Of a stretch of DNA of 64,000 nucleotides, positions 12,890 through 64,000 are shown piece after piece. The position numbers and the translations under genes were made by a program. The notes below the pieces were generated by a model that worked only from the letters and a program-made list of their open reading frames with translations, made no database searches and was not told the DNA's origin. The DNA lies in the NCBI GenBank assembly GCA_964609895.1, contig CAZSTG010000001.1:59202-123201 (forward strand). Direction: 5' to 3'. The number at the start of each line of letters is the position of its first letter. The stretch's first letter is position 1. Source of the stretch: an uncultured Gammaproteobacteria bacterium. Its GTDB lineage: Bacteria; Patescibacteriota; Microgenomatia; UBA10105; UBA927.

Positions 12890-12890
12890 A

Positions 12891-20278: not shown

Positions 20279-20312
20279 ACATTGTGCACTGTTAGTGTTG
20301 CATGTGGCAGTT

Positions 20313-21641: not shown

Positions 21642-21650
21642 AATAAATCA

Positions 21651-21845: not shown

Positions 21846-21851
21846 AGCGTG

Positions 21852-22502: not shown

Positions 22503-22509
22503 AATCGTA

Positions 22510-25097: not shown

Positions 25098-26504
25098 TCA
25101 CTTCATCCGTTGCACTTCCAGCTGTATGACACTTTGGGGAGTTGCCACAACCGTTTTTTTCAGCACGCCGTTCGTAACCGTTTCCTGACTTTGTGTTGTT
25201 TTTCCGGAGAGTATTGTTTCCTTATATGTATATGTACCGTTGGGGAGATGCATAAATGTGACAGGAACCTGTTCCGTATGTGTTCCCTTGGCGTCAAAGT
25301 TTACCAGCAGCACTTTGATGATGTTGTTTTTGACTGATGCAAATCCGGTAACCCATGATCCTTCACCCGAAAGTTGCAGCCGTGTTCCTTTCATCGCATC
25401 AAAAAATGAATAGACATAATAGCGCGGTTTGATCTTTTTTCCGTTTGTCGGATGTGTAATCAGCCCCCAGCCGCTTCCGTTTTCCTGATTCGGTCCATCC
25501 ACAAGTTCAAAGGAAAACAGATACGTCGGTCCGCCGGAAATAAGTTCCCGAAGTACTGATGCGGTATGAGCAGTCCCGAATGAGGTACCGTATGCCGTGC
25601 TTTTTGCGCCGGTAAAACCGAATTCCGTAATGATGGTCGGTTTGGTGGTGTATGCGGGATATGCCATGAGCCAACCACTCAAATTATGCTGGTCTGTGGT
25701 GAACTGCTTGGGATTGGCTAAGTAGGAATGCCACGAAAAAAAGTCCAACCGGCTGCCGGTGTTGATCACTCCAAGAATCCAGTTTTTGTAGAGACCTGTT
25801 GTTGCCGGTCCGCCGAACATAAACGGATTGACGTTGTTTGCCTGATTTGCTCCGGTTGCCGCATACCGGTATAACGTCAGATAGTTTTTTTCTCCGCTCA
25901 GTTTCCATGAGCCGAACTGGTCAAGATCTGGTTCGTTCCATACTTCGTAGTACATGCCACTGATGTTTTTCCCCGATTTTCCGCTGTAATGCTCTATTGT
26001 TTTCTGCACAACTGTCGCCCAATCGTTCCAGTCGTTCGGCGGATTGATGACAACGCCGTCTTTTGCAATAGCTTGTGGCATAAAAGAAAGAGACAGAAAC
26101 GGTTTTGCTCCTGTTGCCAGAATGGTATTGACGGCAGTATCAAGCTTTGAAAAATCAAAGGAAAGTGTGCTGCCGTTTTTTGACACAACGTCATAATGAT
26201 CAAAAATATGATCCAGTCTGATAACTTTTGGTGACAGTGCCTTTGTTTCCTGCAGGACAGGGGCGATCATATCGCCTGCCTCTTCACCGCCCTGTGCAAA
26301 AGCGTGGAAAAAGTCAGTGTTGATTTCCTCCAGTTTTGTCTGCGTGTCTATGACAATGGTTGCTTTTGTGCCGGATGCTTTGGAAACCAGCTGTGTTGTT
26401 TTGTATACCACGGCGATCAGAAGTGGAATAAATACAAGGAGGGCAAGGATGGAAGTAAATGTGGTGAATTTGGATGGTGCGGTTTTTTCCAGAAATGATG
26501 TCAT
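25098..26504 (-). CDS. Secreted/anchored clan GH-A glycoside hydrolase (GH39/GH5-like)
   Basis: N-terminal TM helix. ...YYEVWNEPDL (catalytic acid/base 'NEP' of clan GH-A)...ITEFGFTG (nucleophile Glu context). Confidence 0.65.
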   Translation of the reverse strand: MTSFLEKTAPSKFTTFTSILALLVFIPLLIAVVYKTTQLVSKASGTKATIVIDTQTKLEEINTDFFHAFAQGGEEAGDMIAPVLQETKALSPKVIRLDHIFDHYDVVSKNGSTLSFDFSKLDTAVNTILATGAKPFLSLSFMPQAIAKDGVVINPPNDWNDWATVVQKTIEHYSGKSGKNISGMYYEVWNEPDLDQFGSWKLSGEKNYLTLYRYAATGANQANNVNPFMFGGPATTGLYKNWILGVINTGSRLDFFSWHSYLANPKQFTTDQHNLSGWLMAYPAYTTKPTIITEFGFTGAKSTAYGTSFGTAHTASVLRELISGGPTYLFSFELVDGPNQENGSGWGLITHPTNGKKIKPRYYVYSFFDAMKGTRLQLSGEGSWVTGFASVKNNIIKVLLVNFDAKGTHTEQVPVTFMHLPNGTYTYKETILSGKTTQSQETVTNGVLKKTVVATPQSVIQLEVQRMK

Positions 26505-27298
26505 ACAGTCTGTTTTGCTTTTGCGTATACAACACCGCTCACTGCAATGCAGCAGATACCTGCAATAAGCAGTGCGACGGTTGTTTCTGTTGATCCCGTT
26601 ACGGGCACTTCGTCACTGCCGCCTCCCATGCCGTCGGTGGTAATGAGCGCGCTGTCTGTTGCCTCTGTTTCGGGTGTCACTGTCGGTTCTGCAGGAGTCT
26701 CCGTGGGTGTGACAGCGGAAAGGAGTGCTGCCTGCGTGGGTGTCGGCATGACGGTAGTTGTGGTGGTGGTTGTTGATGTCCCGAGAATATTTACGGAAGC
26801 GGTTCCCATGGTGGTAATCACATTGGTTGATTCCGCCAGTCCTGATGCAAATGTGGTGGTGTCAAATTTCAACTGGACGGGCGCGGTTGTTCCTGTTTTT
26901 CCCTTAAAGCGGATGACGGCAATAGTGCCGGTACCTGTTATGGGGGAAGTGGTGCTGTTAGCAGCTACGGTAATAGATGCGGTGCCCGCCCCTACGATTC
27001 CGGAAGCGGTGATTTTTGGTGCCAATGCGCCATTCGTGATGCTTGTGGCTTCGAGTTTCGTGGAATCGAAGGTAACAACGACTTTGACCGCGGTAACATT
27101 GTTTGTGCCTGTGTTGATGTCGACGTTGACGGCAAATTGTTCATCCACTGGCTTAGTGATGGTTGTCGGATTAAAAGAAAGAGCGGTTGCTGGCGCGGCG
27201 CGGCTGCGGATATCCTGCTGCCTTCCCACCAAGTAGACTGATGCAGGGACCGCGACCAAAAGAAGTATACCAACAATAAGTAAGACGATTTTTTTCAT
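26501..27298 (-). CDS. Thr-rich cell-surface protein. N-terminal TM + 'DIRSRAAP', C-terminal VPVTG-TM-KAKQTV sorting signal.
   Basis: MKKIVLLIVGILLLVAVPASVYLVGRQQDIRSRAAP...TSTTTTTTTVMPTPTQ...EVPVTGSTETTVALLIAGICCIAVSGVVYAKAKQTV*. Start at ATG 27296-27298. Confidence 0.7.
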   Translation of the reverse strand: MKKIVLLIVGILLLVAVPASVYLVGRQQDIRSRAAPATALSFNPTTITKPVDEQFAVNVDINTGTNNVTAVKVVVTFDSTKLEATSITNGALAPKITASGIVGAGTASITVAANSTTSPITGTGTIAVIRFKGKTGTTAPVQLKFDTTTFASGLAESTNVITTMGTASVNILGTSTTTTTTTVMPTPTQAALLSAVTPTETPAEPTVTPETEATDSALITTDGMGGGSDEVPVTGSTETTVALLIAGICCIAVSGVVYAKAKQTV

Positions 27299-27344
27299 CC
27301 TATATTTAGTATGCCGTAAACAGACAAGGGAAGACAATAGGGTA

Positions 27345-27381
27345 TTGACAGATATTAGCACTCGTTATATATTACTGCTAA
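27345..27381 (+). promoter_or_regulatory. Sigma70-like promoter (TTGACA-17-TATATT) overlapping a CIRCE-like HrcA operator (TTAGCACTC-N9-TACTGCTAA)
   Basis: ttgaca 27345-27350; TTAGCACTC 27355-27363; N9 gttatatat; tactgctaa 27373-27381 (7/9 to GAGTGCTAA). Lies ~85 nt upstream of hrcA. Confidence 0.75.
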
Positions 27382-35730: not shown

Positions 35731-35759
35731 TTCACCCAAAGTTAGTAATGGGTTATAAT
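35731..35759 (+). promoter_or_regulatory. Candidate promoter TTCACC-17-TATAAT for the first methyltransferase gene (the -10 lies inside the annotated ORF start; the true start may be ATG 35772)
   Basis: ttcacc 35731-35736; tataat 35754-35759; in-frame ATG 35772 (MNKNFQSTKPIVIDLF). Confidence 0.4.
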
Positions 35760-36851
35760 GTAATTCCGATAATGAATAAAAATTTTCAATCCACTAAACC
35801 TATCGTTATTGACCTCTTTTCTGGTTGTGGAGGATTATCATATGGATTTTCTCAAGCGGGGTATGATGTTAGATTAGGAATAGATAATGATGAAACTGCT
35901 TTAAAAACTTTTGAATTAAACCATCCACATAGCAAAGGTGTAAATATTGATTTATCAGATAAATTTGCGATTAGTAAGATTAAAAAAATATTAGGTAATT
36001 CTAAGGTAGACGTTATTATCGGTGGTCCACCCTGTCAAGGATTTTCTTTAACAGGTACAAGAAAATTTGATGATGATCGAAATAAATTATATTTGTCTGT
36101 TATAAAGGCTGTAAAAGAATTAAAACCAAAAGCTTTTATGATAGAAAATGTAACTGGGATGGCCACCTTATATAAAGGAAAGGTAAAAGAAGAAATTATA
36201 AAGAGATTTAATAAATTAGGTTATAACGTCAATAGTCAAGTTTTATGTGCGGCTGACTATGGAGTACCTCAGATACGAAAAAGATTAATATTTATTGGAT
36301 TAAGAAAAAAATTAGGTGAATACGATTTCCCAATACCAACAAATAATCCAACAAATTATATATCTACCGCAGATGCCATAAGCGATTTACCTTCTCGAGA
36401 AAATAATATTGGTATTGAAGCAGATCAATATTTAAATAAACCAAAAACTGAATATCAAATTTTAATGAGAAAAAATTCAATTAAACTTTATAATCATGTT
36501 GCGACAATTCATTCTAAAAAGGTTATAGACGTGATTAAACTGGTACCAGAAGGGAAAAATTATAAAAGTTTACCAGAAGGCGTCGGCTCTCATAGAAAAT
36601 TTCATGAAGCTTGGACACGTTATCATAGTAAAAAACCTTCAAGGACTATCGACACAGGCCATCGTAATCATTTTCACTATAAGTATAATAGAGTTCCTAC
36701 AGTTCGCGAGAACGCCAGATTGCAATCCTTTCCAGATGTGTTTATTTTTCTTGGAAGTAAAACTCAGCAGAATAAGCATGTTGGCAATGCCGTTCCACCA
36801 CTACTAGGATATTGCGTTGCTAAAAAACTTTTACCTTATCTAAAAAAGTAG
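35748..36851 (+). CDS. DNA (cytosine-5)-methyltransferase (Dcm family), M1
   Basis: Motif I VIDLFSGCGGLSYGF; motif IV GGPPCQGFS; motif VI ENV; motif VIII QIRKRLIFIG; motif X GNAVPPLL. Confidence 0.92.
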   Translation: MGYNVIPIMNKNFQSTKPIVIDLFSGCGGLSYGFSQAGYDVRLGIDNDETALKTFELNHPHSKGVNIDLSDKFAISKIKKILGNSKVDVIIGGPPCQGFSLTGTRKFDDDRNKLYLSVIKAVKELKPKAFMIENVTGMATLYKGKVKEEIIKRFNKLGYNVNSQVLCAADYGVPQIRKRLIFIGLRKKLGEYDFPIPTNNPTNYISTADAISDLPSRENNIGIEADQYLNKPKTEYQILMRKNSIKLYNHVATIHSKKVIDVIKLVPEGKNYKSLPEGVGSHRKFHEAWTRYHSKKPSRTIDTGHRNHFHYKYNRVPTVRENARLQSFPDVFIFLGSKTQQNKHVGNAVPPLLGYCVAKKLLPYLKK

Positions 36852-36880
36852 CTAAAAATTTTAATTGCATCACGTTCAAT

Positions 36881-38110
36881 ATGAGGAAACTTAATGTTAT
36901 AGATTTGTTTGCCGGATGTGGAGGTTTAACTGATGGTTTTGAACAATCAGGTTTTTTTAAAACTCTAGCTTGTGTTGAATGGGATAAATCTTGTTGTGCA
37001 ACATTAGCTAAAAGATTAGCAAATAAATGGAATTATAAAAATGGTTCTGAAGTTGTTATCAGGTATGACATACAAAAAACTGCAGATTTGCTAAAAGGAT
37101 TTAATGATCCAAAATACGGATTTAATCTTGGGTTAAATAAACTTATTGAAAATAAAGTCGATTTATTGATTGGTGGTCCTCCATGTCAGGCGTATTCAGT
37201 TGCTGGTAGAATTAGAGACAAACACGGAATGCAACTAGATTATCGTAATTATCTTTTTGAAAGTTATATTAAAGTATTAGATAAATTTAGGCCAGAAATA
37301 TTTATTTTTGAAAATGTTTTAGGACTACTGAGTGCAAAGCCAGGTGGTGTTTCTATCATTAATAGAATAAAAAAAGCTTTTTCACAAATCGGTTATGAAA
37401 TTGTCGATGACATAAGGGGAAATGCAGTTTTTGACGTTGCGGATTATGGAGTTCCTCAAATAAGAAAACGTGTTATATTACTTGGTTTAAATAAAAATGT
37501 GTATAAAGAAAATAGGCAAAAAATTTTAATTGATTTTTATCAAAATATATTACCCTCATTTAAAGAACAACATAGGAAAACAGTTAAAGATGCAATTTTT
37601 GACCTTCCAAAATTTCAAATAAATAAATTAGAAATTGATTCAAACAACAAAGTGCAACCACATTTTTCTGAATCCATGTCTATATTAAATCATTATCCAA
37701 GATATCATAGTAAAAGAGATATTCAAATATTTTATGAATTAGCTTTGGATCAAAGTAAGGGGAATAAAAAATTTCATTCAGTTAAGGATATCAAAAAATT
37801 ATATACAGAAAAAACCGGTAAAATTTCTAATGTACATAAATATTTTGTTTTAAAATGGAATGAGCCTAGTAATACAATAGTTGCGCATCTATATAAAGAT
37901 GGGTTAAGACATATACATCCAGATTATAAGCAAGCGAGATCGATTTCCGTGCGTGAAGCGGCACGACTACAGTCGTTCGATGACGATTTTGAATTTTTAG
38001 GATCAATGGGTGATCAATATAAAATGATTGGAAATGCAGTTCCTCCGCTCTTTGCTAAAAAATTAGCTTGTGCCGTGCACAAGTTTAAAGTTAAATATAA
38101 TGGAGTATAA
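36881..38110 (+). CDS. DNA (cytosine-5)-methyltransferase (Dcm family), M2
   Basis: VIDLFAGCGGLTDGF; GGPPCQAYSVAGR; FENV; QIRKRVILLG; GNAVPPLF. The second adjacent m5C MTase has a distinct target-recognition domain insert. Confidence 0.92.
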   Translation: MRKLNVIDLFAGCGGLTDGFEQSGFFKTLACVEWDKSCCATLAKRLANKWNYKNGSEVVIRYDIQKTADLLKGFNDPKYGFNLGLNKLIENKVDLLIGGPPCQAYSVAGRIRDKHGMQLDYRNYLFESYIKVLDKFRPEIFIFENVLGLLSAKPGGVSIINRIKKAFSQIGYEIVDDIRGNAVFDVADYGVPQIRKRVILLGLNKNVYKENRQKILIDFYQNILPSFKEQHRKTVKDAIFDLPKFQINKLEIDSNNKVQPHFSESMSILNHYPRYHSKRDIQIFYELALDQSKGNKKFHSVKDIKKLYTEKTGKISNVHKYFVLKWNEPSNTIVAHLYKDGLRHIHPDYKQARSISVREAARLQSFDDDFEFLGSMGDQYKMIGNAVPPLFAKKLACAVHKFKVKYNGV

Positions 38111-38118
38111 TAAGATAA

Positions 38119-39117
38119 ATGAATGAACAGATATTATATATTCATAAACTGAACGCCCAAGAATTGGGTTTTAGACACGGTTCTTCTCATAAGGCTGGAA
38201 GATATATATATGTATCAAAAAAGTATTTAAATTTTTTTCCTCAATTAAGTGAATCGATTAAAAACGATCATATTCTTATTGATATTATTCCACCCGATTC
38301 TGACAAATTAATTTTGACTAATTATGTTTATCATAACGATAAAATAGTAGATTCAAAATCAAATGGTAGAAATGAATTTAGAATTTATTTGAATGAAGGA
38401 AATGATTTAGAAGGAAATTATTATCAGCCAAATGATATTGTTGTTATTCAGTCAGTAAAAATTGATGATAGTGCAACGTATAAAATATATAAATTTGACC
38501 AAATTCAACATGGTGTTGTATATCGACAACTTGACGAGTTATTGCGTAGATATGATAGTGCAGGAGCTTCTCATGCAATGATTCCGTTTGATGAACTTAA
38601 ATTTTTATCTATTCCTCAATATCCTACCGTAGATTTACAAAGTAAAGTTTTACCAAATGATGTAAAAGAAACAATTTTTAGTGCCCCAGTAGGTGTTTCA
38701 CTTCCATCTGAAGGGGAAGTGATTCGAAAAATTCGAAGCGCTAATTTTCGCGACTTAGTTCTCATGTTTTATGATTATAAATGTGCCGTCACTGGTAGAA
38801 GTAAAATAATTGAATATGGAACATTAACAAATCTTGAAGCGGCACATATTTATGCTTTTTCTAAAAGTGGAGGAGATAATCCATCAAACGGAATACCTTT
38901 GATTAAGGATATCCATTGGGCTTTTGATAATGGATTTTTTACTTTGACACCAGAATTTAAAATAAAAGTACATGATAATGCAATGAAAATTTCTTATTTA
39001 GCTGAATATAACAATAGGATTATAAATTTACCTGAAGATTCAAGAGCTAGACCTAATATGTCATCAATTGAGTGGCATAATAAGAATGTATTTGGTCAAT
39101 TTGTTAGGAAACAGTAA
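38119..39117 (+). CDS. Putative restriction endonuclease: N-terminal DNA-recognition domain fused to a C-terminal HNH nuclease domain
   Basis: C-terminal region CAVTGRSKI...LEAAHIYAFSKSGGDNPSNGIPLIKDIHWAFDNGFF matches the HNH (ββα-Me) signature (Cys/His-His...Asn...His). Immediately downstream of, and co-oriented with, the two MTases. Confidence 0.7.
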   Translation: MNEQILYIHKLNAQELGFRHGSSHKAGRYIYVSKKYLNFFPQLSESIKNDHILIDIIPPDSDKLILTNYVYHNDKIVDSKSNGRNEFRIYLNEGNDLEGNYYQPNDIVVIQSVKIDDSATYKIYKFDQIQHGVVYRQLDELLRRYDSAGASHAMIPFDELKFLSIPQYPTVDLQSKVLPNDVKETIFSAPVGVSLPSEGEVIRKIRSANFRDLVLMFYDYKCAVTGRSKIIEYGTLTNLEAAHIYAFSKSGGDNPSNGIPLIKDIHWAFDNGFFTLTPEFKIKVHDNAMKISYLAEYNNRIINLPEDSRARPNMSSIEWHNKNVFGQFVRKQ

Positions 39118-50670: not shown

Positions 50671-52857
50671 ATGCAACGAAAACGGAAATACAGAAAACGC
50701 GGACCGTTTAATCTGAAGCTGAAAAAACAGACGATTTATACTGTTGCAGCGATCTGGTTGTGGATCTTTTCCCTGATTATCATCTTTTCGTTTTTTGGTG
50801 AGGGATCGGCGTTACTGCGGCTTCGGGACGGATTGTATACGAAAATCGGCTGGGTGATGTATCCGTTCCCCGTATTTCTTGTGTCACTGAGTTTACTGTT
50901 TTTTAAAGTGAAATCTGATCTTGCCAAACCGAATGTGCCGACCGGATTTTTCCTGTTTTTATTGTCTCTGATCGGACTGACGCAGGCAGGAATGCTTGGG
51001 GAATGGATGATGCGGTGGCTGTCCGATGTGCTGACCATAGAAGTCGCGTATCTGTTGTTTATTGGTGTATTTATCGTCGGACTGATTATTGAATTTAACA
51101 CATCACTGGATGCATTTATCAACGTTCTCCTCATGGGTGTACAGAAAATTCTTGAATGGATCGGTGATTTTTTCAAAAATCTGGTGTCTCCGCAGGATAA
51201 ATTTGCAGGCGGCGGGAAACAAATGAAGATTAAGGGGGAAGAATTTATGGACAAGCCGATGACCATAAAAGGCGGCGCACCGATTGTTCCTGCTCCCACA
51301 GCTGCGGGTAAATCAGTGCCGACTGCAGCAGGAACCAACAAACCAATGGACGTGGGCGGAGAGTTTAAGGTAAACAGCTCCATGACACCGCCGCAGGAGC
51401 AACTGATCTGGGAATATCCACCACTGACACTATTATCGGACGGGCCAAATCAACGGGCGGATCGGGGAGACGTGAAGTACAATGCTGACACAATCAAAAA
51501 AACTCTCGGATCGTTTGGTATCATGGCAAACGTTGTGGAAGTCAATAAAGGTCCGGCCATTACCGAATATGCGTTGGAAATTGCCCTCGGCACAAAAGTA
51601 TCGAAAATTCAATCATTGTCCAGCGATCTCGCGCTTGCTCTTGCAGCTCCTACCGGACAAGTCCGCATCCAAACGCCGATTCCAGGAAGGAGTCTGATCG
51701 GTATCGAAATTCCGAACCGCGGTCTTGAATTTGTCACACTCAAACACATGTTGGAATCGGATAAAGTTGCAAAATCAAAAAGCAAACTGACAGTAGCACT
51801 TGGTCTGGATGTGGCAGGAAACCCCGTGACTGTTGATATTGGAAAAATGCCGCATATGCTTATTGCCGGTACGACCGGTTCGGGAAAATCCGTGCTGGTC
51901 AACGCGTTTATTACTTCGTTGTTGTTCAGGACTACGCCGCAGGAAGTCAAGCTCATTATGGTGGATCCGAAACGGGTAGAACTTACGGGATACAACGGCA
52001 TTCCACATCTGCTTGCTCCTGTGATCGTTGATGCGGACAAAGCGCTGTCGGCACTGCACTATGCAGTCAAAGAAATGGAAAACAGATACAAGCAACTTGC
52101 AGAAGTGGGAGTAAAAAATATCGACAGTTTTAATGAGCTTGCCGGCATGCAGGCAATGCCGTATATCGTCATTTTCATCGACGAACTTGCGACGCTCATG
52201 GCATACGCGCCGGTTGATGCGGAGGACACGATTTGTAAAATTGCACAGATGTCGAGAGCGGTCGGCATTCACTTGGTGCTTGCTACCCAGCGGCCGAGCG
52301 TTGACGTCATCACCGGTTTGATTAAAGCAAACATCCCCTCGCGCATCGCTTTCAACGTATCTTCCATGATTGATTCCCGTGTGGTTCTTGACATGCCGGG
52401 AGCAGAAAAGCTTCTTGGTCGGGGAGACATGCTTTTTATTCCGCCGGATCAAAGCAAACCAACCCGTATTCAGGGAACGTATGTGTCTGAACAGGAAGTG
52501 AATAAAGTGGTGGAATATCTGAAAGCGAAAAATTCTCCGGTGCAGTATACCGATGAAGTGGTGAATACGCCAGTTTCTGCCATGCATAAAGGTGGAGGTA
52601 TGGCAAACACGACTCCGGACGGAAAAGATCCGTTGTTTGATGACGCATTCCGGCTCATCTGTCAGCATGACAAAGCATCCGCATCCTTGTTACAGCGGAG
52701 ACTTTCCGTCGGGTATGCAAGAGCTGCACGTATTCTGGATCAGCTGGAGGCGGAAGGCATTATCGGCGCGGGTGAAGGCTCCAAGCCGCGGGATGTTCTG
52801 ATAAAAAATCCCGATGATTACTACGCAAATCAGCAGTCTGCGCAGGGACAACAGTAA
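50671..52857 (+). CDS. ftsK: DNA translocase FtsK/SpoIIIE
   Basis: N-terminal 4 TM helices, linker, motor domain ...HMLIAGTTGSGKSVLVNAFITSL (Walker A)...IVIFIDELA (Walker B)...ATQRPSVDVITG. C-terminal gamma winged helix ...LLQRRLSVGYARAARILDQLE. Confidence 0.93.
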   Translation: MQRKRKYRKRGPFNLKLKKQTIYTVAAIWLWIFSLIIIFSFFGEGSALLRLRDGLYTKIGWVMYPFPVFLVSLSLLFFKVKSDLAKPNVPTGFFLFLLSLIGLTQAGMLGEWMMRWLSDVLTIEVAYLLFIGVFIVGLIIEFNTSLDAFINVLLMGVQKILEWIGDFFKNLVSPQDKFAGGGKQMKIKGEEFMDKPMTIKGGAPIVPAPTAAGKSVPTAAGTNKPMDVGGEFKVNSSMTPPQEQLIWEYPPLTLLSDGPNQRADRGDVKYNADTIKKTLGSFGIMANVVEVNKGPAITEYALEIALGTKVSKIQSLSSDLALALAAPTGQVRIQTPIPGRSLIGIEIPNRGLEFVTLKHMLESDKVAKSKSKLTVALGLDVAGNPVTVDIGKMPHMLIAGTTGSGKSVLVNAFITSLLFRTTPQEVKLIMVDPKRVELTGYNGIPHLLAPVIVDADKALSALHYAVKEMENRYKQLAEVGVKNIDSFNELAGMQAMPYIVIFIDELATLMAYAPVDAEDTICKIAQMSRAVGIHLVLATQRPSVDVITGLIKANIPSRIAFNVSSMIDSRVVLDMPGAEKLLGRGDMLFIPPDQSKPTRIQGTYVSEQEVNKVVEYLKAKNSPVQYTDEVVNTPVSAMHKGGGMANTTPDGKDPLFDDAFRLICQHDKASASLLQRRLSVGYARAARILDQLEAEGIIGAGEGSKPRDVLIKNPDDYYANQQSAQGQQ

Positions 52858-52874
52858 GTACTTCATCATCCCAT

Positions 52875-53510
52875 ATGAACACCGTCGGCACCATGTTAAA
52901 ACAAGCAAGAGTCGCCAAAGGTATTACCCTGCAGGAAGTGGAGAAACAAACAAAGATCAGACTGAAATTTTTGGAAGCAATTGAGAAAGACGCATATCAC
53001 TTATTGCCATCTCCTGTCTACGCAAAAGGATTTGTAAAAAACTACAGTGAATATCTAGGGCTTGAGAGTGCGACAATCATGGCTTTTTTCCGGCGTCAGA
53101 GCGATGATGTAAAACGGACGGTGATTCTGCCGAAAAAAGCGCAGGAAATAGAAGCAAAAGGACTGCGGCTTACTCCAGGCAGGTTTATCACCATTTTACT
53201 GATCGGATTGTCCGTTTTGTTTTTGTCGTATTTTTTGATGCAATATCAGAAACTGCAGCGCCCGCCGGAACTCACCATTACCAAACCCGTTCATGAAAGC
53301 ATCGTTGGAGAAAAAAAGTTGGATGTGATGGGGCAGACTAATAGTGATACCACAGTGACGGTAAACGGACTCAGTGTCTCCGTACGGGGTGATGGGAAAT
53401 TTTTTACACAGGTGACACTTGAGTCGGGAGTGAACACTATTACGGTCATTGCAACGTCGAGGTTTGGTAAAACCAAAACAGAAGTGTTAAAAGTTGGCCT
53501 GCAGCAATAG
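52875..53510 (+). CDS. rodZ: RodZ-like cytoskeleton-associated protein (XRE-type HTH + TM + C-terminal beta domain)
   Basis: TMLKQARVAKGITLQEVEKQTKIRLKFLEAIEKDAY (HTH)...YAKGFVKNYSEYLGL...one TM helix (FITILLIGLSVLFL). Confidence 0.7.
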   Translation: MNTVGTMLKQARVAKGITLQEVEKQTKIRLKFLEAIEKDAYHLLPSPVYAKGFVKNYSEYLGLESATIMAFFRRQSDDVKRTVILPKKAQEIEAKGLRLTPGRFITILLIGLSVLFLSYFLMQYQKLQRPPELTITKPVHESIVGEKKLDVMGQTNSDTTVTVNGLSVSVRGDGKFFTQVTLESGVNTITVIATSRFGKTKTEVLKVGLQQ

Positions 53511-53630: not shown

Positions 53631-53894
53631 ATGGATCCAGTACAGATAACGATCATCGTAATAAGCTTCATTTTAGTCACCCTCATTGTCATTTTGACGA
53701 TTCAGACGATCGGCATCATGAAAGAATTCAAGTTAACAGTGCAAAAAATTAATAAGATGCTTGATGACGGCGGAAAAGTCACGGGTATTGTGAGTGATTC
53801 AGCTACAAGTATTGCGGGTGTGATTGGCGGCATTAAAACTGGTATGAATGTGTTTTCGATGTTTCGTCGGAAAGGAGAATCCCATGAACAATGA
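53631..53894 (+). CDS. Small membrane protein (DUF948-like: N-terminal TM + short coiled region)
   Basis: MDPVQITIIVISFILVTLIVILTIQTIGIMKEFKLTVQKINKMLDD... Confidence 0.5.
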   Translation: MDPVQITIIVISFILVTLIVILTIQTIGIMKEFKLTVQKINKMLDDGGKVTGIVSDSATSIAGVIGGIKTGMNVFSMFRRKGESHEQ

Positions 53895-54264
53895 CAGAGA
53901 CAATAAGTTTATGATCGGTTTTTTCATCGGGGGACTCATCGGCGCAGGCGTCATGTTTTTGATGGGAACAAAAGAAGGAAAAAAAGTTGAGAAGATGTTG
54001 GAGAGGAAAGGAAAAGAGGCACTGGATGATATAGAAGACAAAGTGGATGAACTGAAGGAAAAAGGGGAAGAACTGTTGAAAAAAGGCGAAGCGATTAAGG
54101 AACAAGTGCTGGAACAAATCGAAGATAAAAAAGATGACTTAACGGAAGAAGCGTCAAGACGCTTAGATAGTGCGCTTGCAAATGTCGTGGAGATTCAGGA
54201 AAAAGGTGTTGCAACAACCACCAACCTTCGGAAGCGCCTGTTCAAGAACGTGCCAAAGAGATAA
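53884..54264 (+). CDS. YtxH-like protein (Gly-rich N-terminal helix + coiled-coil)
   Basis: MNNDRDNKFMIGFFIGGLIGAGVMFLMGTKEGKKVEKMLERKGKEALDDIEDKVDELKEKGEELLKKGE. Start reset to ATG 53884. Confidence 0.6.
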   Translation: MNNDRDNKFMIGFFIGGLIGAGVMFLMGTKEGKKVEKMLERKGKEALDDIEDKVDELKEKGEELLKKGEAIKEQVLEQIEDKKDDLTEEASRRLDSALANVVEIQEKGVATTTNLRKRLFKNVPKR

Positions 54265-56995: not shown

Positions 56996-58882
56996 ATGAC
57001 AGCAAATGAAATCCGCGAAAAATATCTGAAGTTTTTTTCTTCTGTACCACGGAGTCATGCGGTGATTCCGTCTGCACCCTTAGTTCCGGAAAATGATCCG
57101 ACAACACTGTTTAATAGTGCGGGTATGCAGCCCCTTATCCCATATTTATTGGGTCAACCACACCCACAAGGGAAGCGATTGGTAAACAGTCAAAAATCTT
57201 TCAGATCACAGGACATTGATGAAATCGGAGACAATCGTCACATGACATTTTTTGAGATGCTTGGAAATTGGTCACTTGGTGATTATTTTAAGAGTGAACA
57301 ACTTCCTTGGTTTTTGGAGTTTGTTACAAAAGAATTAGGACTGGATCCAAAACGGATTTATGTGTCTGTGTTTGCAGGAAATGACGCGGTTCCTAAAGAT
57401 GATGAATCAATTCAGATCTGGAAACGTTTGGGAATTTCTGATGATCATATTTATTCCTATGATGTGGAAAAGAATTGGTGGAGTAGATCGGGAACACCGG
57501 AAAAAATGCCAACGGGTGAACTTGGAGGACCGGACAGTGAAATGTTTTACGATTTTGGTGAAGAACTTCATTTACATGAAAACTCACAATATAAAAATGA
57601 GACATGTCATCCAAATTGTGATTGTGGTCGGTTTTTGGAAATCGGTAATTCTGTTTTTATGCAGTACAAAAAAATGGCGGGTGGCACGCTTGAAGAACTG
57701 CCTCAAAAGAATGTTGATTTTGGTGGTGGACTTGAGAGGCTCAATGCCGCCGCAAATGGGAAACCGGATAGTTTTTTGACGGATTCGTTTTCCTCAATCA
57801 TTGCTGCAATTGAAAAAGGTTCAAACAAAACATATGGAACGAATGTTGAAGAGACCCGATCCATGCGAATCATCGCAGATCATATGCGAGGTGCTGTGAT
57901 GATGATTACAGATGGTGTTGTGCCAAGTAACAAACAACAGGGATATATTTTGCGAAAATTAATCAGACGTTCGATGCTTCACGCAAAGCGATTAGGAATT
58001 GAAAAAAGTGAGGATTTTATCCCGACACTCGTTGCACCAATTGCCACTATGTACGCTGACGCGTATCCAGAAGTTGCAGCTCAGCAACAAACAACATACA
58101 CAACTATCCTTGATGAAGGAAAACGATTTGGAAAAACAATTGAAAAAGGTTTGAAAGAATTGGAGAAAATGGCAACAGTTGATGGAAAAGAAGCGTTTAC
58201 ACTTTATGAAACATATGGATTCCCATGGGAATTGACAGAAGAAATTGTTGTTGCCCGCGGACAAACAGTGAATAGACAGCAATTTGAAGAAGCGTTTAAA
58301 CAGCATCAACTGCTGTCTCGTACCGCAAGCGCCGGTATGTTTAAAGGCGGACTGGCAGACAACAGTGTGGAAACAACACGGCTGCATACAGCACATCATT
58401 TGCTTCTTGCCGCCCTTCAAACTGTGATTGATCCTACTATTAAACAACGGGGAAGCAATATTACCGTTGAACGATTGCGGATGGACTTTAATTTTGGAAG
58501 AAAAGTGACACCTGAAGAGCTCAACCAAGTCGAAGCGTTGGTAAACCAGAAAATCAGAGAAAATCTGCCGGTGACACGTGTGGAAATGCCGAGGGAAATC
58601 GCCGAAAAAACCGGCGCACAGATGGAATTCGGCCACAAATATCCGGACAAAGTGAGCCTCTATTTTGTCGGTTTGAAGGAAGGAACATCGCCGGAAATTG
58701 CACAGAAAGACGATTATTCCTCCGCGGAATTCTGCGGCGGACCACATGTTTCCTTTACAGGCGAGTTGGGTCACTTTACAATAGATAAAGAGGAGTCTGC
58801 CAGTGCCGGTATCCGCCGGATATATGGTCATCTCAATCATGAAGATAGCGGATCAACTACAACATCTATTCCACAAAAGTGA
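56996..58882 (+). CDS. alaS: Alanyl-tRNA synthetase, short form (catalytic + tRNA-binding + editing domains; no C-Ala domain)
   Basis: MTANEIREKYLKFF...DPTTLFNSAGMQPL...GPCGPD-like region...editing-domain HxxxH (TRLHTAHHLLLAAL) and FCGGPHV. Start reset to ATG 56996. Confidence 0.88.
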   Translation: MTANEIREKYLKFFSSVPRSHAVIPSAPLVPENDPTTLFNSAGMQPLIPYLLGQPHPQGKRLVNSQKSFRSQDIDEIGDNRHMTFFEMLGNWSLGDYFKSEQLPWFLEFVTKELGLDPKRIYVSVFAGNDAVPKDDESIQIWKRLGISDDHIYSYDVEKNWWSRSGTPEKMPTGELGGPDSEMFYDFGEELHLHENSQYKNETCHPNCDCGRFLEIGNSVFMQYKKMAGGTLEELPQKNVDFGGGLERLNAAANGKPDSFLTDSFSSIIAAIEKGSNKTYGTNVEETRSMRIIADHMRGAVMMITDGVVPSNKQQGYILRKLIRRSMLHAKRLGIEKSEDFIPTLVAPIATMYADAYPEVAAQQQTTYTTILDEGKRFGKTIEKGLKELEKMATVDGKEAFTLYETYGFPWELTEEIVVARGQTVNRQQFEEAFKQHQLLSRTASAGMFKGGLADNSVETTRLHTAHHLLLAALQTVIDPTIKQRGSNITVERLRMDFNFGRKVTPEELNQVEALVNQKIRENLPVTRVEMPREIAEKTGAQMEFGHKYPDKVSLYFVGLKEGTSPEIAQKDDYSSAEFCGGPHVSFTGELGHFTIDKEESASAGIRRIYGHLNHEDSGSTTTSIPQK

Positions 58883-61184
58883 ACCCGTAAAAGACGTGTA
58901 TCTTTCATTGACGTTGTTTCACCAGCAAGTATCAGGATGCGTGTGGACGATCGGACAGGAATCGGTGCTGGATGTCATCAACTGCACGCACGCAACAAGT
59001 CAGGACGGCTCATGGGAAAAGCGCATTGAAGCTGCGGATGTTGTTGTAAGCGGGTTGGAGGAAAAGAGTGGAGTGGGAGAATTGCATAAAACCGTGCTTG
59101 GGTTTACTCCTGAATTTTTAACCAAAGAAGGGGATATCAACAAAGCAATCAGGGCTGATATCAAACGGATGACATCCTTGTTGGATTTGCAGCCGGTGGG
59201 TTTTGTGAGCATTGAAACGGCAATCGTGTTTCAGATAAAACATGAAGAAGGTGTACCGCCGAGCATCATTCTTATATATGTTGCAGGTGAGGAGATGAAT
59301 ATTGCCTTGTATCGTGTCGGCAATCCGGTCGGAGAACGCAGTGTACATATCAGTGAATTCATCGTCGAAGATGTGGAAAAAGCCATCAAAAGTTTTTCCG
59401 ATGTGGAGGTGCTGCCGTCTCGGATGATTCTGTATGGAGAGGATGGGGAACAGCTGGAAACAATCAAATCACAGTTGTTGACACATCAGTGGACCAGTCG
59501 TGCAAATTTTCTTCATTACCCGACAATCGATATTTTCGGGTCGGAACAGGTTGCACGGGCGGTGGCGCTTGCGGGAGCAAGTGAATTGACCGCAAATTAT
59601 GTGGAGGAAAAAACCGAAGAAAAGGAAGCGGAAGAGAACCTCGGTGAAGATACAATTGCGGAAACAGTTGTTGCTCAACAGGATATTGAAAATACAGATG
59701 AAAAAACTATTGAAGAAGTGATACAGGAAGAACAGATCGCAGCACCCGCAAAGCTATATACGGAGGACAAAGAAGAGGTGCAAGAAGAAAAAGATTTGTT
59801 GGACGAAACGGAAGAACTCCCCGAGGTGCATCCGGAAGATATGAACGTTCTCCCTGTTGCTCCGGAGTCACTGGGATTTCAGCAGGGAACAGATGTGCTG
59901 GAAAAACCGGTGACACGGCAGATGCCACATCAGGAAACACAGGATACCCGCGATATAGAAACGCCCAAGCAGTCGGTAATCCGGACAATCGGCGCAAAAA
60001 TTGCCGCCGTATTTGCGGGAATATCATTACCGTCCATACAAATGTCGACAAAATTCCCTGTTCTTCCTGTTGCGCTTATTTCCCTTGTCCTATTTGCTGT
60101 TTTCGGGCTGATCTATTATTTTATGCCAAAGGCAACAGTTACTATCGGCGTTATTCCGCACAGTATCCAGAAGTCAAAGACAATTACCATTGCTCCCGCC
60201 GCCACCGCGGTTGATCAGTCAAAATTTGTTATTCCGGCAAAAAAACTGGAACAGTCGGTGACAGGGGAAAAAACAGCGGCGGTGACCGGCAAGAAACGCA
60301 TCGGAGATCCGGCCAAAGGGACAGTAACCATTTATAACAAGGCGGTATCCTCTCGTGTGCTGAAAAAAGGAACAGTACTCGTCAGCGGCAACGCACTGCA
60401 GTTTACGTTGGACAATGAAATAACGATTGCATCGGCAAGCGAATCGATCGGTTCCATAACATTCGGGAAAACCACAGCCGCAGTTACCGCGGTTGCCATC
60501 GGAGAAGAGGGAAACCTTGCGGCAGGAACAGACTTCACATTTAAGGAGTTGTCTTCCGGTATTGCAATAGCCAGAAATGATCAGGCGTTTACCGGCGGTA
60601 CAAGCCGTGAAACAACAGTTGTTTCACGATCCGATTATGACGCGATGGTAAAAGCATTGTCTGAGGAGTTGGTTGCCAAGGCAAAGACAGATTTGCTTGC
60701 GGGAGTGGCGGGGGGAGAAAAACTGATTGATTCTACAATAAAAACGACAGTGACCAGTAAGACATTCCGCGAGGAGTTGGATCAGGAAGCAACGGAATTA
60801 CACGGTAAAGTTACGTTAACCATTTCGGGAATTTCCTACAATGAGCAGGACATCAAAGCGGTGCTTCTGCCGACCGCCTCCAGTGAAATCCCGAGCGGCT
60901 ATGTTATGAATGAAGGGAGAACGGCCGTGACCATTGATACCCCGACAGTAAAAAAAGACGGAACAATAACCGCCGTGTCATCCATATCCTTGGTCTCTTT
61001 GCCGGCTGTTGATGTTGAGGTAGTACGAAAGGAATTGGTTGGAAAAACTATTGCCGCTACACAGGAAATTATCAAAAAACTGCAGGGAGTCGGCAGCGTA
61101 GAATTTTTCTTTTCGAGAACTGTCAGCAAGAACAGGCTTCCCCTGAATCCTGCAAATATTACAGTTGAAGTTGTGGTTCAATAA
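58839..61184 (+). CDS. Large bitopic membrane protein (cytoplasmic N-domain ~400 aa with an acidic coiled stretch, one TM helix, extracytoplasmic beta-rich C-domain ~350 aa) directly upstream of the sortase gene
   Basis: TM helix FPVLPVALISLVLFAVFGLIYYFM near residue 420. The C-domain is Thr/Val/Gly-rich with a beta-strand periodicity. Overlaps the alaS 3' end by ~45 nt. Confidence 0.55.
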   Translation: MKIADQLQHLFHKSEPVKDVYLSLTLFHQQVSGCVWTIGQESVLDVINCTHATSQDGSWEKRIEAADVVVSGLEEKSGVGELHKTVLGFTPEFLTKEGDINKAIRADIKRMTSLLDLQPVGFVSIETAIVFQIKHEEGVPPSIILIYVAGEEMNIALYRVGNPVGERSVHISEFIVEDVEKAIKSFSDVEVLPSRMILYGEDGEQLETIKSQLLTHQWTSRANFLHYPTIDIFGSEQVARAVALAGASELTANYVEEKTEEKEAEENLGEDTIAETVVAQQDIENTDEKTIEEVIQEEQIAAPAKLYTEDKEEVQEEKDLLDETEELPEVHPEDMNVLPVAPESLGFQQGTDVLEKPVTRQMPHQETQDTRDIETPKQSVIRTIGAKIAAVFAGISLPSIQMSTKFPVLPVALISLVLFAVFGLIYYFMPKATVTIGVIPHSIQKSKTITIAPAATAVDQSKFVIPAKKLEQSVTGEKTAAVTGKKRIGDPAKGTVTIYNKAVSSRVLKKGTVLVSGNALQFTLDNEITIASASESIGSITFGKTTAAVTAVAIGEEGNLAAGTDFTFKELSSGIAIARNDQAFTGGTSRETTVVSRSDYDAMVKALSEELVAKAKTDLLAGVAGGEKLIDSTIKTTVTSKTFREELDQEATELHGKVTLTISGISYNEQDIKAVLLPTASSEIPSGYVMNEGRTAVTIDTPTVKKDGTITAVSSISLVSLPAVDVEVVRKELVGKTIAATQEIIKKLQGVGSVEFFFSRTVSKNRLPLNPANITVEVVVQ

Positions 61185-61186
61185 TT

Positions 61187-61891
61187 ATGCCGCTGTATCG
61201 TTATGTAAAACAGGTTCCGAAACCGCCGGTAAAGCGGTCTGTTGTCATATCGTTTCTGTTTATGGGACTTGGTATTGTGCTGTTGGTTTGGACGCTGTGG
61301 CCGATTCTTTCATTCAGTCTGATAACGCAGGATCTGCTTGCCAAAACAATTTCCCCTGTTGCCGACACCGCATACGCCGCAGGAAGATATCTTGCCGCGA
61401 GCGCACAGGCTGCGGAATATGAAAATCCAAGTGCATGGTATCCGACAAGACCGCAAAAAAAAGTAACCGCCGCGGTCAACATGTACGCGCTGTCTATTCC
61501 GAAACTGCGCATTGAGAATGCGAAAGTGATTGTCTCAGGAGACGATTTGGGTGTCAGTTTGGTGCATTACGGCGGAACACCGCTTCCCGGCCAATACGGC
61601 AATGCGGTGGTATTCGGACATTCCACACTGCCGCAGTTTTATAATCCGACAAGTTATAAAACCATTTTTTCGCTGCTGCCGACGTTGGAAATCGGCGATA
61701 CTGTCACTGTGCATTTTGACAACATAGAGTACGAATATAAAGTATTCGACAAAATTGTCGTTGAACCGACCGATTTGTCACCGCTGGAGCAGAAGTTTGA
61801 TGATTCTTATCTAACGTTGGTAACGTGTGTTCCCCCTGGCACGTATTGGAAACGGCTGAACGTAAAACTGCGGATCGTCAAAAATCTATGA
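61187..61891 (+). CDS. srt: Sortase-family transpeptidase
   Basis: N-terminal TM anchor (VVISFLFMGLGIVLLVWTLWPI). Active-site His context NAVVFGHSTL. Catalytic Cys in LTLVTCVPPG (the TLxTC motif). Conserved Arg downstream (KRLNVKLR). Confidence 0.8.
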   Translation: MPLYRYVKQVPKPPVKRSVVISFLFMGLGIVLLVWTLWPILSFSLITQDLLAKTISPVADTAYAAGRYLAASAQAAEYENPSAWYPTRPQKKVTAAVNMYALSIPKLRIENAKVIVSGDDLGVSLVHYGGTPLPGQYGNAVVFGHSTLPQFYNPTSYKTIFSLLPTLEIGDTVTVHFDNIEYEYKVFDKIVVEPTDLSPLEQKFDDSYLTLVTCVPPGTYWKRLNVKLRIVKNL

Positions 61892-63141
61892 AACAGAAAA
61901 CGATTGCCCTTGAGGCGATTAAAAAAAAGCTGCTTGGAAAAAAACTAACCTATCGGGAGATATTTTCCGTCATGGATGAAATTGCTCACGAGCGGTTGGG
62001 GCCGGTACTCACTACATATTTTACCGCGGCAGGATTCAGGGAAGGGTTTTCTCCGGATGAATTGTATTTTATGACAAAAGCCATGGTGGAAACGGGAAAT
62101 AGGCTGCAGTTTGAGGGAATTGTTGCTGACAAACACAGTACGGGAGGAGTCGCAGGAACCAGAACAACCATGATTCTTGTGCCGATCATCGCAGCGGCGG
62201 GATTTCAGATACCGAAAAATTCTACGCGGGCAATTACCAGTCCGGCGGGCACTGCAGATACAATGGAAGTGGTTGCGCCGGTCACATTTGAAGCGTCACA
62301 GATTAAAAAAATCATCAGCGATGTCGGCGGCTGTATTGTATGGGGTGGTCATCTGGGTTTAGCGCCGGCCGATGATGTCATCATAGAAATCGGTCAGCCG
62401 CTCGGATTTGAATCGTACGATAAATTCATTATCGCCATCATGGCAAAAAAGATTGCCGTTGGCGCAACACATCTGGTTATAGATATTCCCGTCGGATCAA
62501 AAATGAAGGTGCAGCATTTTGCCGATGCGGAAATCATTGCCAAAAAATTTTCCTATCTCGCCGAAAAATTCAATATAAAAATCACCATTGACATCAACGA
62601 AACAACACAAAATGCGGGATTCGGTATTGGGCCGGTATTGGAGGCGCATGACGTATTTGAAGTGCTGGAGCAAAAAGCTGAGAGACCGATTACGCTTGAA
62701 AATAAAGCGCTGCGGCTGGCGGGAAAGTTATTGAATATCTGCATTGCAGATACCCCTGCCATGAAAGGGGTACAGGGAGAAGAACTGGCGCGGGAGCTGT
62801 TAACGTCGGGGAAAGCACTTGCCAAAATGCGTGAAATTATCGCCGCACAGGGGGGGAATCCGGATATAACCAGCGAACAGCTTGTCGCCGGCGGGGAGAA
62901 ATATGAACTGCCTGCTTTAAACAGCGGCAGAGTGATAAGAATCGACAATAAGGAAATAAGTATGATCTGCAGAATTCTCGGCTGCCCTACAGATAAGAAG
63001 GCCGGCATGTTCTTAAACCGAAAACTTGAAGAACATGTGGATAAAGGTGATATACTATGCACACTGTATAGTCAGGATGCATATCGGATGCGCGAAGCGA
63101 TAGAAACAGTAAAAAATATTCCGGTCTATACGGTTGAATAA
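61888..63141 (+). CDS. Thymidine/pyrimidine-nucleoside phosphorylase family protein (glycosyl transferase family 3). Could be an AMP-phosphorylase-type enzyme.
   Basis: ...DKHSTGGVAG (phosphate-binding DKHSTGGVGD-like motif)...TSPAGTADTMEV... ATGA overlap with the sortase stop. Confidence 0.8.
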   Translation: MKQKTIALEAIKKKLLGKKLTYREIFSVMDEIAHERLGPVLTTYFTAAGFREGFSPDELYFMTKAMVETGNRLQFEGIVADKHSTGGVAGTRTTMILVPIIAAAGFQIPKNSTRAITSPAGTADTMEVVAPVTFEASQIKKIISDVGGCIVWGGHLGLAPADDVIIEIGQPLGFESYDKFIIAIMAKKIAVGATHLVIDIPVGSKMKVQHFADAEIIAKKFSYLAEKFNIKITIDINETTQNAGFGIGPVLEAHDVFEVLEQKAERPITLENKALRLAGKLLNICIADTPAMKGVQGEELARELLTSGKALAKMREIIAAQGGNPDITSEQLVAGGEKYELPALNSGRVIRIDNKEISMICRILGCPTDKKAGMFLNRKLEEHVDKGDILCTLYSQDAYRMREAIETVKNIPVYTVE

Positions 63142-63142: not shown

Positions 63143-63334
63143 ATGTTTAAAAATATCATTGCTCCAGTACAAGCATGGTTATTGTCTCAGGGAAAATGTG
63201 TCGGCTGTGGCAAGGAACTTCCGAAATCTCAGGGAACCGGACTTATTCAGATAACGTGCGAATGCGGCCGTATTTATATGTACGATGCTGCAGCAAACAA
63301 ATACAGGAGAGCTACACTTGATGAAATCAAATAA
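63143..63334 (+). CDS. Small zinc-ribbon protein
   Basis: MFKNIIAPVQAWLLSQGKCVGCGKELPKSQGTGLIQITCECGRIYMYD. CxxC...CxC. Confidence 0.5.
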   Translation: MFKNIIAPVQAWLLSQGKCVGCGKELPKSQGTGLIQITCECGRIYMYDAAANKYRRATLDEIK

Positions 63335-64000
63335 TACGATTATCACCCGCGTCTTCAGTCTGTTGGCCGTTCTGCTCATTGTCGCCGGTGTCGGATTGGT
63401 TTGGTGGAAAAACGCCATGAGTCCGGTGGATGAAACAGATACAAACCTCATCACTTTTGTTGTTCCGAGCGGTCAGGGTTCAAAAGAAATTGCACGGAGA
63501 CTTGCATCGGAAGGGCTTATCCGAAGTCAGATCGGTTTTTATCTTCTAGTCCGTTTTTTTAATACCAACGGACAGATTCAGGCGGGAGAATTCAGACTCA
63601 ACAAAACCATGGATACAAGAACCATTGCAAAAGAACTGACTCTCGGCACGATGGATGTTTGGTTGACTATTCCGGAAGGTTGGCGTGTGGAAGAAATAGC
63701 GACGAATATCGCAAAAGAGCTGAATATTCCGGAAAAAGAGTTTTTGTCGGCGGCACGGGAAGGGTATATGTTTCCCGACACCTATTCGGTTCCGCAGGAT
63801 GCCACAGCTGGAGGAGTCGCGAAAATACTTTCCGACACCTTTGCTGAAAAAGTCACTCCGCAGATGATCGCTGATGCCAAAAAAGCAGGCTTATCGCTCG
63901 AGGCGGTGGTGACGCTTGCTTCACTGGTGGAACGGGAGGGAAAAACAAATCAGGATAGACCCGTGATTGCAGGAATACTGCTCAACCGGCTGAATCAGGA
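63321..64000 (+). CDS. mltG: Endolytic murein transglycosylase MltG (YceG-like), partial (runs off the window end)
   Basis: MKSNNTIITRVFSLLAVLLIVAGVGLVWW (TM)...FVVPSGQGSKEIARRL...GEFRLNKTM...DVWLTIPEGWRVEEIA...MFPDTY...LVEREG. YceG family signature. Confidence 0.85.
   Translation, partial: MKSNNTIITRVFSLLAVLLIVAGVGLVWWKNAMSPVDETDTNLITFVVPSGQGSKEIARRLASEGLIRSQIGFYLLVRFFNTNGQIQAGEFRLNKTMDTRTIAKELTLGTMDVWLTIPEGWRVEEIATNIAKELNIPEKEFLSAAREGYMFPDTYSVPQDATAGGVAKILSDTFAEKVTPQMIADAKKAGLSLEAVVTLASLVEREGKTNQDRPVIAGILLNRLNQ

Follow-up and report, generated by a model that had tools for sequence, protein, structure and literature searches.

A membrane protein with predicted actin-like and baseplate-J-like domains is a near-invariant neighbour, and possibly a partner, of the Microgenomates sortase

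We analysed a 64,000-nucleotide stretch of contig CAZSTG010000001.1 (positions 59,202 to 123,201, hereafter the window), in which a sortase gene directly follows the gene for a 781-residue bitopic membrane protein that we call BIG. Of 135 informative loci, ~134 keep the order BIG then sortase, even where identity in BIG falls to 24%, and BIG is predicted to carry a minimal actin-like fold inside the cell, a single membrane helix and a baseplate-J/gp47-like fold outside. We propose, at a probability of roughly one in two, that BIG serves the sortase of this lineage as a transmembrane scaffold or regulator. The genes of the locus form a compact housekeeping string, all in one direction, around an ancient two-gene core of BIG then sortase.

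Results

BIG and the sortase form a conserved two-gene module

On the plus strand, from position 56,996 to the end of the window, the genes run alaS, BIG, sortase, phosphorylase, a small zinc-ribbon-like open reading frame (ORF) and mltG, with the following confirmed coordinates:

56996..58882, plus strand, alaS, short-form alanine--tRNA ligase (NF002436, 654 bits; PF01411)
58839..61184, plus strand, BIG, 781-residue bitopic membrane protein of an uncharacterised family of Microgenomates and the candidate phyla radiation (CPR)
61187..61891, plus strand, sortase, 234 residues (PF04203, 5e-19)
61888..63141, plus strand, archaeal-type nucleoside/AMP phosphorylase of the DeoA family, 417 residues (NF003338, TIGR02645)
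63143..63334, plus strand, CxxC...CxC zinc-ribbon-like ORF, 63 residues (from its translation)
63321..64000, plus strand, mltG, YceG-like endolytic transglycosylase, running off the window (PF02618, E=1e-42)

The BIG start overlaps the 3' end of alaS by 44 nt (58839-58882), an overlap that results from a C-terminal extension of about 15 residues in alaS, whose homologues stop near ...RRIYG/AVVS; the BIG ATG agrees with the family N-terminus MKLP..LF. Only 2 nt separate the BIG stop from the sortase start, and the mltG start overlaps the zinc-ribbon ORF by 14 nt. In a promoter and terminator scan of the string, which was uninformative, the counts fell in the range expected from shuffled sequence; the single plus-strand terminator-like site lies inside the BIG coding region, and the intergenic gaps of the string hold none. 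The original prediction had described the protein before the sortase as having a cytoplasmic N-domain, one membrane helix and a beta-rich extracellular domain, and this description held: the 781-residue protein has a soluble N-domain, one hydrophobic segment and a beta-rich C-domain.

Gene order was sampled in 69 species-representative genome loci, five contigs with homologues of 24-26% identity and 80 divergent metagenome loci. The order alaS, BIG, sortase was present in 67/67 genome loci that extend far enough, with one small gene intervening at L060 and L067. The sortase was also next after BIG in all five contigs of the 24-26%-identity homologues, and it followed BIG directly in 62 of the 63 informative metagenome loci, with L128 as the sole exception. 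Across genome loci and distant contigs the gap from BIG to sortase had a median of 10 nt; in the distant contigs, which read alaS, BIG, sortase, RuvX, a 57-66-residue ORF and YceG, the two genes overlap by 4-14 nt. The pair lay between alaS and ruvX/mltG in 69/69 genome loci, and alaS stood upstream of BIG in nearly all loci; ruvX itself was not found in the fetched stretch of 63 of the 69 genome loci. The zinc-ribbon ORF is conserved between ruvX or the phosphorylase and mltG, with a counterpart of 57-66 residues at the same site in L070-L074 and in most metagenome loci, and it matched no Pfam or PHROGs family. The ancestral order is alaS-BIG-sortase-ruvX-Zn-ribbon-mltG. For a gene arrangement such as this one chance is not at issue; conservation is the test, and it is very strong. 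The original prediction was to fail if relatives did not keep the order or if the large protein had a clearly unrelated annotated function; the order is kept, and no such function was found.

The BIG family is large. The window belongs to an ultra-small CPR bacterium of the Microgenomates/Gottesmanbacteria type; the closest homologue of its BIG, 83% identical, comes from a 'Microgenomates group bacterium', and at least 264 homologues are labelled 'hypothetical' or 'baseplate J/gp47 family'. Scanning with a profile of the family gave at least 1,952 representative clusters at E<=1e-30, defined at 50% identity, and 5,441 such clusters when the threshold was E<=1e-10. Literature searches on the BIG family or on an actin-like sortase partner in CPR found nothing, and none of the genes of this locus is involved in the Pam pilus described in a CPR preprint.

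Insertions into the module are rare. The gene between BIG and sortase in L060 (10674-11123) encodes a 149-residue membrane protein with PPCVLCWYQR, DsbB/VKOR-like by eye, and that in L067 (10149-10484) a 111-residue membrane protein; L072 has a 508-residue protein of unknown kind between alaS and BIG (4449-5975). Many TPA_asm records of metagenome-assembled genomes (L004-L068) labelled 'uncultured Gammaproteobacteria bacterium' carry a clearly CPR/Microgenomates-type locus, and these labels look wrong.

BIG is predicted to join an actin-like fold to a baseplate-J-like fold across the membrane

The two halves of BIG were structure-predicted separately, using family alignments, and the protein was divided as follows:

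58839..59624, plus strand, cytoplasmic N-domain, residues 1-262, predicted minimal actin-like (ASKHA) fold, FtsA/PilM-like
59625..60053, plus strand, acidic variable linker (35 D+E against 10 K+R in residues 263-400)
59844-59879, plus strand, conserved linker motif, residues 336-347, NVLPVAPESLGF, with residues invariant across relatives
60054..60122, plus strand, single transmembrane helix, residues 406-428 (Kyte-Doolittle window scan)
60135..61181, plus strand, ectodomain, residues 433-781, predicted baseplate-J/gp47-like
60303-60614, plus strand, Pfam Baseplate_J match (PF04865), residues 489-592, 24.8 bits against a gathering score of 21.1

The prediction for residues 1-268 (mean predicted local distance difference test score, pLDDT, 82) contained two bbb-a-b-a-b-a lobes, which constitute a minimal actin-like fold, and its best structural matches in a fold search were FtsA and PilM. 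Only 208-215 of the 333-370 residues of FtsA or PilM could be aligned to this 262-residue domain, which has no inserts, and subdomains 1C and 2B are missing from it. Furthermore, the phosphate-1 DxG[ST] and phosphate-2 DxGGGT motifs were absent at the corresponding positions: the end of beta1 reads LSLTLFHQ (LSLxLD in many relatives, never DxG), and the beta6-beta7 hairpin reads ILLGxxGxxxxVSLY, with no Asp. These positions were mapped by predicted secondary structure, so that the correspondence is itself inferential. Residues 1-262 matched no Pfam or NCBIfam model, and a profile search of PDB sequences gave no actin-like protein; a kinship with FtsA or PilM at the level of sequence was therefore rejected in these three collections, and the resemblance is one of fold only. 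The N-domain is probably a structural, non-catalytic actin-fold domain as modelled, and our best guess is that it belongs with the FtsA/PilM subfamily rather than with another ASKHA protein.

The linker of ~140 residues is poorly conserved outside one short motif, NVxxVxPExLGF, in which N336, V337, V340, E343, L345, G346 and F347 were invariant in 39 sequences; its core, [LF]GF[VI]..D[VI], survives in BIG relatives of 25-35% identity. Residues 406-428 are the only hydrophobic segment of the protein.

The ectodomain prediction (residues 441-781) reached a pLDDT of 88.7, and its Foldseek matches were wedge proteins of phages and contractile injection systems of the baseplate-J/gp47/gp6 type, at E values of about 4e-6 to 1e-5; the sole non-phage match was the beta-barrel domain of Streptomyces GlxA. 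Baseplate_J was also matched in 24/39 BIG relatives, and a PDB-sequence profile search gave a weak match to the diffocin baseplate protein TRI-2. Past the beta-barrel module follow a long helix, a b-b-a-b-b module and a conserved C-terminal RLPxNxxNI (61134-61160). BIG is thus predicted to display a complete baseplate-J/gp47-like wedge-protein fold outside the membrane. The original prediction had suggested a PilM/FtsA-type N-domain and a PilO, secretin or Ig-like C-domain: the first part was borne out at the level of predicted fold, and the second was ruled out by the fold searches, which returned baseplate wedge proteins in place of PilO/PilN, secretin or Ig domains. We also considered BIG as a sortase substrate by way of its RLPxNxxNI and rejected this, since neither a transmembrane segment nor a charged tail follows the motif and since the motif differs from the candidate sorting motif of the window, [IMV]P[VT][AST]G.

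Given its ectodomain, BIG might be what is left of a prophage or of a contractile injection system, and its database label 'baseplate J/gp47 family protein' implies this. The Baseplate_J match and the many phage and injection-system wedge proteins among its fold matches would fit such an origin. However, tail and baseplate genes are absent near BIG in the window and in related loci, BIG has no PHROGs match and its GC content resembles that of its surroundings; its position in a housekeeping operon is fixed across ~150 loci, and the baseplate-like module is fused to a membrane helix and an actin-fold domain. A remnant of this kind is barely credible, and we rejected it on genomic context and the absent PHROGs matches.

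The sortase appears intact and falls outside the curated classes

The sortase passed its family models comfortably (PF04203, 68.7 bits against 26.6, E=5e-19; TIGR01076, 57.9 against 39.35). H145 (FGHST), C214 (TLVTC) and R223 align with the class C sortase 4d7w, and a hydrophobic N-terminal membrane anchor spans residues ~15-47. None of the curated classes A-F (NCBIfam NF0337xx) was reached: the best was class C with 58.2 bits against a cut-off of 160, the protein fell far short of the models for classes D, E and F, as it did of the SrtD model NF058671, which is specific for LPxTATN, and there was no class A or B match at E<=0.1. Judged from its sequence, the enzyme is predicted to be a catalytically intact, membrane-anchored sortase of an unclassified Microgenomates type. 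The sortase family is reported to be present almost throughout Microgenomates (PMC6744442).

Ahead of the anchor, the cytoplasmic N-terminus carries YRYVK (residues 4-8, 61196-61210), which is kept in at least 80% of 115 homologues and varies as Y[KR][YK]V[KY] in distant clades. Further conserved motifs lie on the exoplasmic side, namely W-T-x-WPI-x-SF at the exit of the membrane helix and N-x-WFPT-x-PQKK (residues 84-92), and these could be partner-contact or lid-like elements.

Candidate substrates, each with [IMV]P[VT][AST]G and a hydrophobic tail, are encoded by four ORFs:

17665-19278, minus strand, candidate sortase substrate
19343-20278, minus strand, candidate sortase substrate
20313-21641, minus strand, candidate sortase substrate
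26501-27361, minus strand, candidate sortase substrate

Judging by motif and tail, these four are plausible substrates. They lie 34-44 kb upstream of the sortase, in agreement with the earlier remark that the enzyme is encoded far from its candidate substrates. The product of 26501-27361 is a cohesin-domain protein whose sorting-signal-like C-terminus consists of VPVTG and a membrane segment.

BIG as a proposed partner of the sortase

A reasonable reading of these data is that BIG may be a partner of the sortase. Besides their near-universal adjacency, BIG and the sortase behave as a unit inside the alaS/ruvX/mltG block. In Firmicutes alaS, ruvX and mltG are neighbours, to our knowledge without BIG and the sortase between them; if so, the two genes entered the block as a unit. 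Both proteins would act on the membrane's outer face, which also argues for a partnership. Two conserved cytoplasmic motifs, YRYVK of the sortase and NVxxVxPExLGF of the BIG linker, could be suited to docking on the actin-like domain, much as the N-terminal peptide of PilN docks on PilM. In the mechanism that we propose, BIG would form oligomers by way of its actin-like and gp47-like domains. The actin-like domain would be the dock for the linker motif of BIG itself or for the YRYVK tail of the sortase, and BIG would hold, position or gate the sortase at the membrane's outer face. Surface proteins of the [IMV]P[VT][AST]G type would in this way have their anchoring tied to a cytoplasmic positional cue.

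Four observations limit the case for this proposal. First, alaS, ruvX, the zinc-ribbon ORF and mltG are equally conserved in order and unrelated to sortase chemistry, so that a functional tie and mere frozen synteny cannot be told apart by gene order alone. Second, a mirror-tree comparison with alaS and the phosphorylase as controls was divided: the Pearson coefficient, 0.84 for BIG and sortase against 0.69-0.72 with the phosphorylase, favoured the pair, and the Spearman coefficients, all 0.68, did not. Third, the actin-like domain of BIG is without 1C, the subdomain that forms the peptide groove of PilM, and fourth, it does not have the canonical nucleotide-binding residues; owing to these two absences the analogies to PilM and FtsA may not carry over.

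The main rival explanation is that BIG is a division or morphogenesis protein, an FtsA-like tether with an ectodomain that works with the divisome or wall machinery, and that the sortase merely shares its operon. An actin-like domain joined by a flexible linker to a membrane anchor follows the logic of FtsA, and the conserved surroundings of BIG have a division and cell-wall flavour, with alaS, BIG, sortase and mltG preceded in the window by three further genes:

50671-52857, FtsK, upstream of alaS
52875-53510, RodZ-like membrane protein (HTH_25 and a Glucodextran_B-like domain), upstream of alaS
53848-54264, YtxH/ZapG-like protein, upstream of alaS

In other bacteria, RodZ is a binding partner of MreB, an actin homologue. 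The order FtsK, HTH_25, alaS, BIG recurs in the very distant relatives L070 (1053-3784) and L072 (1-1761), and the presence of alaS and ruvX in the string illustrates that synteny here need not imply shared function. On the other hand, neither ftsZ, ftsA nor mreB adjoined BIG in any examined locus, the near-constant adjacency to the sortase speaks against a role in division only, and BIG has no sequence similarity to FtsA and is without 1C and 2B, the subdomains that serve FtsN and FtsZ binding. On balance we regard a division or morphogenesis role as rather unlikely, though it is the strongest competitor of the sortase partnership.

A second rival would make BIG the PilM-type platform for an orphan PilN/PilO operon in the window, with sortase, BIG and PilN/PilO together building a surface fibre. 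This operon (17665-23076) is headed by two genes:

22510-23076, minus strand, PilN, with an N-terminal EINLL motif, heading the operon
21852-22502, minus strand, PilO/type II secretion system M-like, heading the operon with PilN

The three genes after these two encode three of the candidate sortase substrates, surface proteins ending in MPTSG, MPVSG or IPVAG and a hydrophobic tail; the first of them matches Fn3 and Ig-like Pfam models weakly, below threshold, and the remaining two match nothing in Pfam. No pilM is adjacent to PilN/PilO, the gene upstream being murJ on the other strand. That PilN and PilO head an operon for three xPxxG-membrane-segment proteins with no pilM beside it would suit such a platform, as would the weak Pfam matches to PilN (PF05137, E=0.0013), which occurred in just 3/39 BIG relatives. 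However, BIG never adjoins pil genes in ~150 loci, hhalign of the BIG profile against the PilN and PilO of the window gave nothing (probability <1%), the PilN-binding groove subdomain 1C is missing in BIG, and a canonical pilM may lie elsewhere in the genome, beyond the 64-kb window. A PilM-type role for BIG is thus decidedly improbable.

The partnership of BIG and sortase also admits a bolder version. The two proteins might constitute an unrecognised, cytoskeleton-guided surface-anchoring machine specific to CPR/Microgenomates, with self-assembly of the actin fold inside, docking through YRYVK or the linker, and an exapted ring- or dimer-forming gp47-like platform that would site substrates outside, including the xPxxG proteins of the PilN/PilO operon. 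We offer this as a speculation, and one that we doubt in its complete form.

The phosphorylase is probably a secondary neighbour of the sortase

The original prediction had drawn attention to an ATGA overlap between sortase and phosphorylase and called the coupling to a metabolic gene unexpected. The overlap is real: the phosphorylase ATG (61888) and the sortase TGA share the ATGA at 61888-61891. The assignment to the thymidine/AMP-phosphorylase family was likewise upheld, the protein scoring above the archaeal-type models (NF003338, 453.6 bits against 434; TIGR02645, 440.5 against 434.6). Archaeal-type AMP/nucleoside phosphorylase (DeoA) is known across CPR as part of a RuBisCO-linked nucleoside pathway (PMC5113843, PMC6389311). 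The phosphorylase of the window resembles this CPR/archaeal enzyme in passing NF003338 and TIGR02645 and differs from it in two respects: it falls below the cut-off of the AMP_phos equivalog TIGR03327 (427.5 against 535), and its match to that model begins at profile position 84-89, so that the N-terminal (multimerisation) domain of ~84 residues of archaeal AMP phosphorylase is absent. No match to RuBisCO or ribose-1,5-bisphosphate isomerase was found among the Pfam-scanned ORFs of the window, ~20 ORFs lying outside that scan.

A functional coupling of sortase and phosphorylase, for example nucleoside scavenging tied to surface-protein display, could be read into how often the two abut. The phosphorylase was downstream of the sortase in 61/69 genome loci, in 55 of them within 150 nt, and at the 61 junctions, of a Gottesmanbacteria-type clade, whose median gap was 2 nt, the genes overlapped in 24 (19 by 4 nt). 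However, the phosphorylase was absent from L004, L005, L010, L033, L063 and L070-L074, where BIG and sortase are kept, and, among the 62 metagenome loci in which the sortase directly follows BIG, from 55. In the deeper clades ruvX takes the same position, being next after the sortase in L070-L074 and in 51 of the 55 phosphorylase-free metagenome loci (the other four contigs end first), and its junction with the sortase is equally tight (a 1-nt gap in L070, a 4-nt overlap in L072). Five Gottesmanbacteria-type loci read sortase, ruvX, phosphorylase, so that ruvX separates the two, and L063 has ruvX without the phosphorylase. In the clade of the window ruvX is gone from the locus, and absent from the rest of the window too, and the phosphorylase abuts the sortase. 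Furthermore, tight junctions are the norm in this genome: 15 of the 37 same-strand junctions in the window (40%) measured <=12 nt, and 5 were overlaps. The enzyme itself is a known cytoplasmic AMP/nucleoside phosphorylase of CPR (PMC5113843).

We infer that the phosphorylase is a later insertion in some clades, either following ruvX or replacing it. A functional coupling is largely refuted by this distribution, and we hold it to be highly improbable. Most likely the ATGA coupling reflects genome compaction and co-transcription, not shared function, and the metabolic coupling is incidental; this follows from the patchy distribution and the genome-wide baseline of tight junctions, not from any rarity of overlaps. 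The coupling is thus not unexpected, given that ruvX holds the slot as tightly in deeper relatives and that so many same-strand neighbours in the window lie equally close.

Other features of the window

The gene for the cohesin-domain protein is overlapped by 4 nt by a GH39-family glycoside hydrolase gene (25098-26504, minus strand). Cell-wall genes surround the substrate candidates, namely those for a FemAB-like peptidyltransferase (12056-13087, minus strand), a LytR-CpsA-Psr ligase (16597-17613) and the MurJ flippase (23433-25088). A low-GC island at 35748-39117 (GC 0.30-0.34 against ~0.45 around it) contains three ORFs, of which two have the C5-cytosine-methyltransferase motif F[SA]GCGG close to the N-terminus and the third encodes 332 residues; it looks like an acquired restriction-modification system.

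Discussion

CPR bacteria are presumed to live as symbionts that depend on attachment, a lifestyle to which surface structures are central, and we know of nothing on how sortase activity is organised in their cells. Our analysis adds a very large family, of which we found no description in the literature, that would combine an actin fold, a transmembrane helix and a baseplate-J fold and that is a near-invariant neighbour of the Microgenomates sortase. Should BIG and the sortase be physical partners, the pair would represent a new mode of sortase control, and it would exemplify the exaptation of a phage baseplate fold for cell-envelope biology. For BIG, the label 'baseplate J/gp47 family protein' in databases is misleading and is corrected here. 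As for the ATGA-coupled phosphorylase, it is no evidence of a metabolic link, and the tightness of operons in compact genomes should not be over-read.

Comparison with known systems

In its ectodomain BIG resembles the wedge proteins Mu gp47, diffocin TRI-2 and Pvc11/Afp11 of the PVC and AFP systems, at about the length of a whole gp47; unlike these baseplate J/gp47 proteins, it is encoded outside any contractile-tail or injection-system cluster. From PilM-PilN and FtsA it differs in having no sequence-level similarity, no 1C and 2B subdomains and degenerate ATP-binding motifs. It also unites actin fold, membrane helix and ectodomain in one polypeptide, with an ectodomain that is not PilN/PilO-like. 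Moreover, unlike PilM and FtsA, BIG is unlinked to pil or fts genes, its neighbours across ~150 loci being alaS, sortase, ruvX or phosphorylase, and mltG.

The best functional precedent is the SafA-SrtA pair of Actinobacteria, in which a conserved membrane protein encoded beside the housekeeping sortase binds that sortase and controls its membrane retention (PMC9282373). Like SafA, BIG is a conserved membrane protein encoded directly beside its lineage's sortase. Whereas SafA is a small transmembrane protein encoded downstream of srtA and acting by way of an exoplasmic FPW motif (PMC9282373), BIG has 781 residues, is encoded upstream and carries large folded domains both inside and outside the membrane; we claim no homology. 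BIG may thus be analogous in role, not homologous, to SafA in its pairing with SrtA or to PilM in its pairing with PilN.

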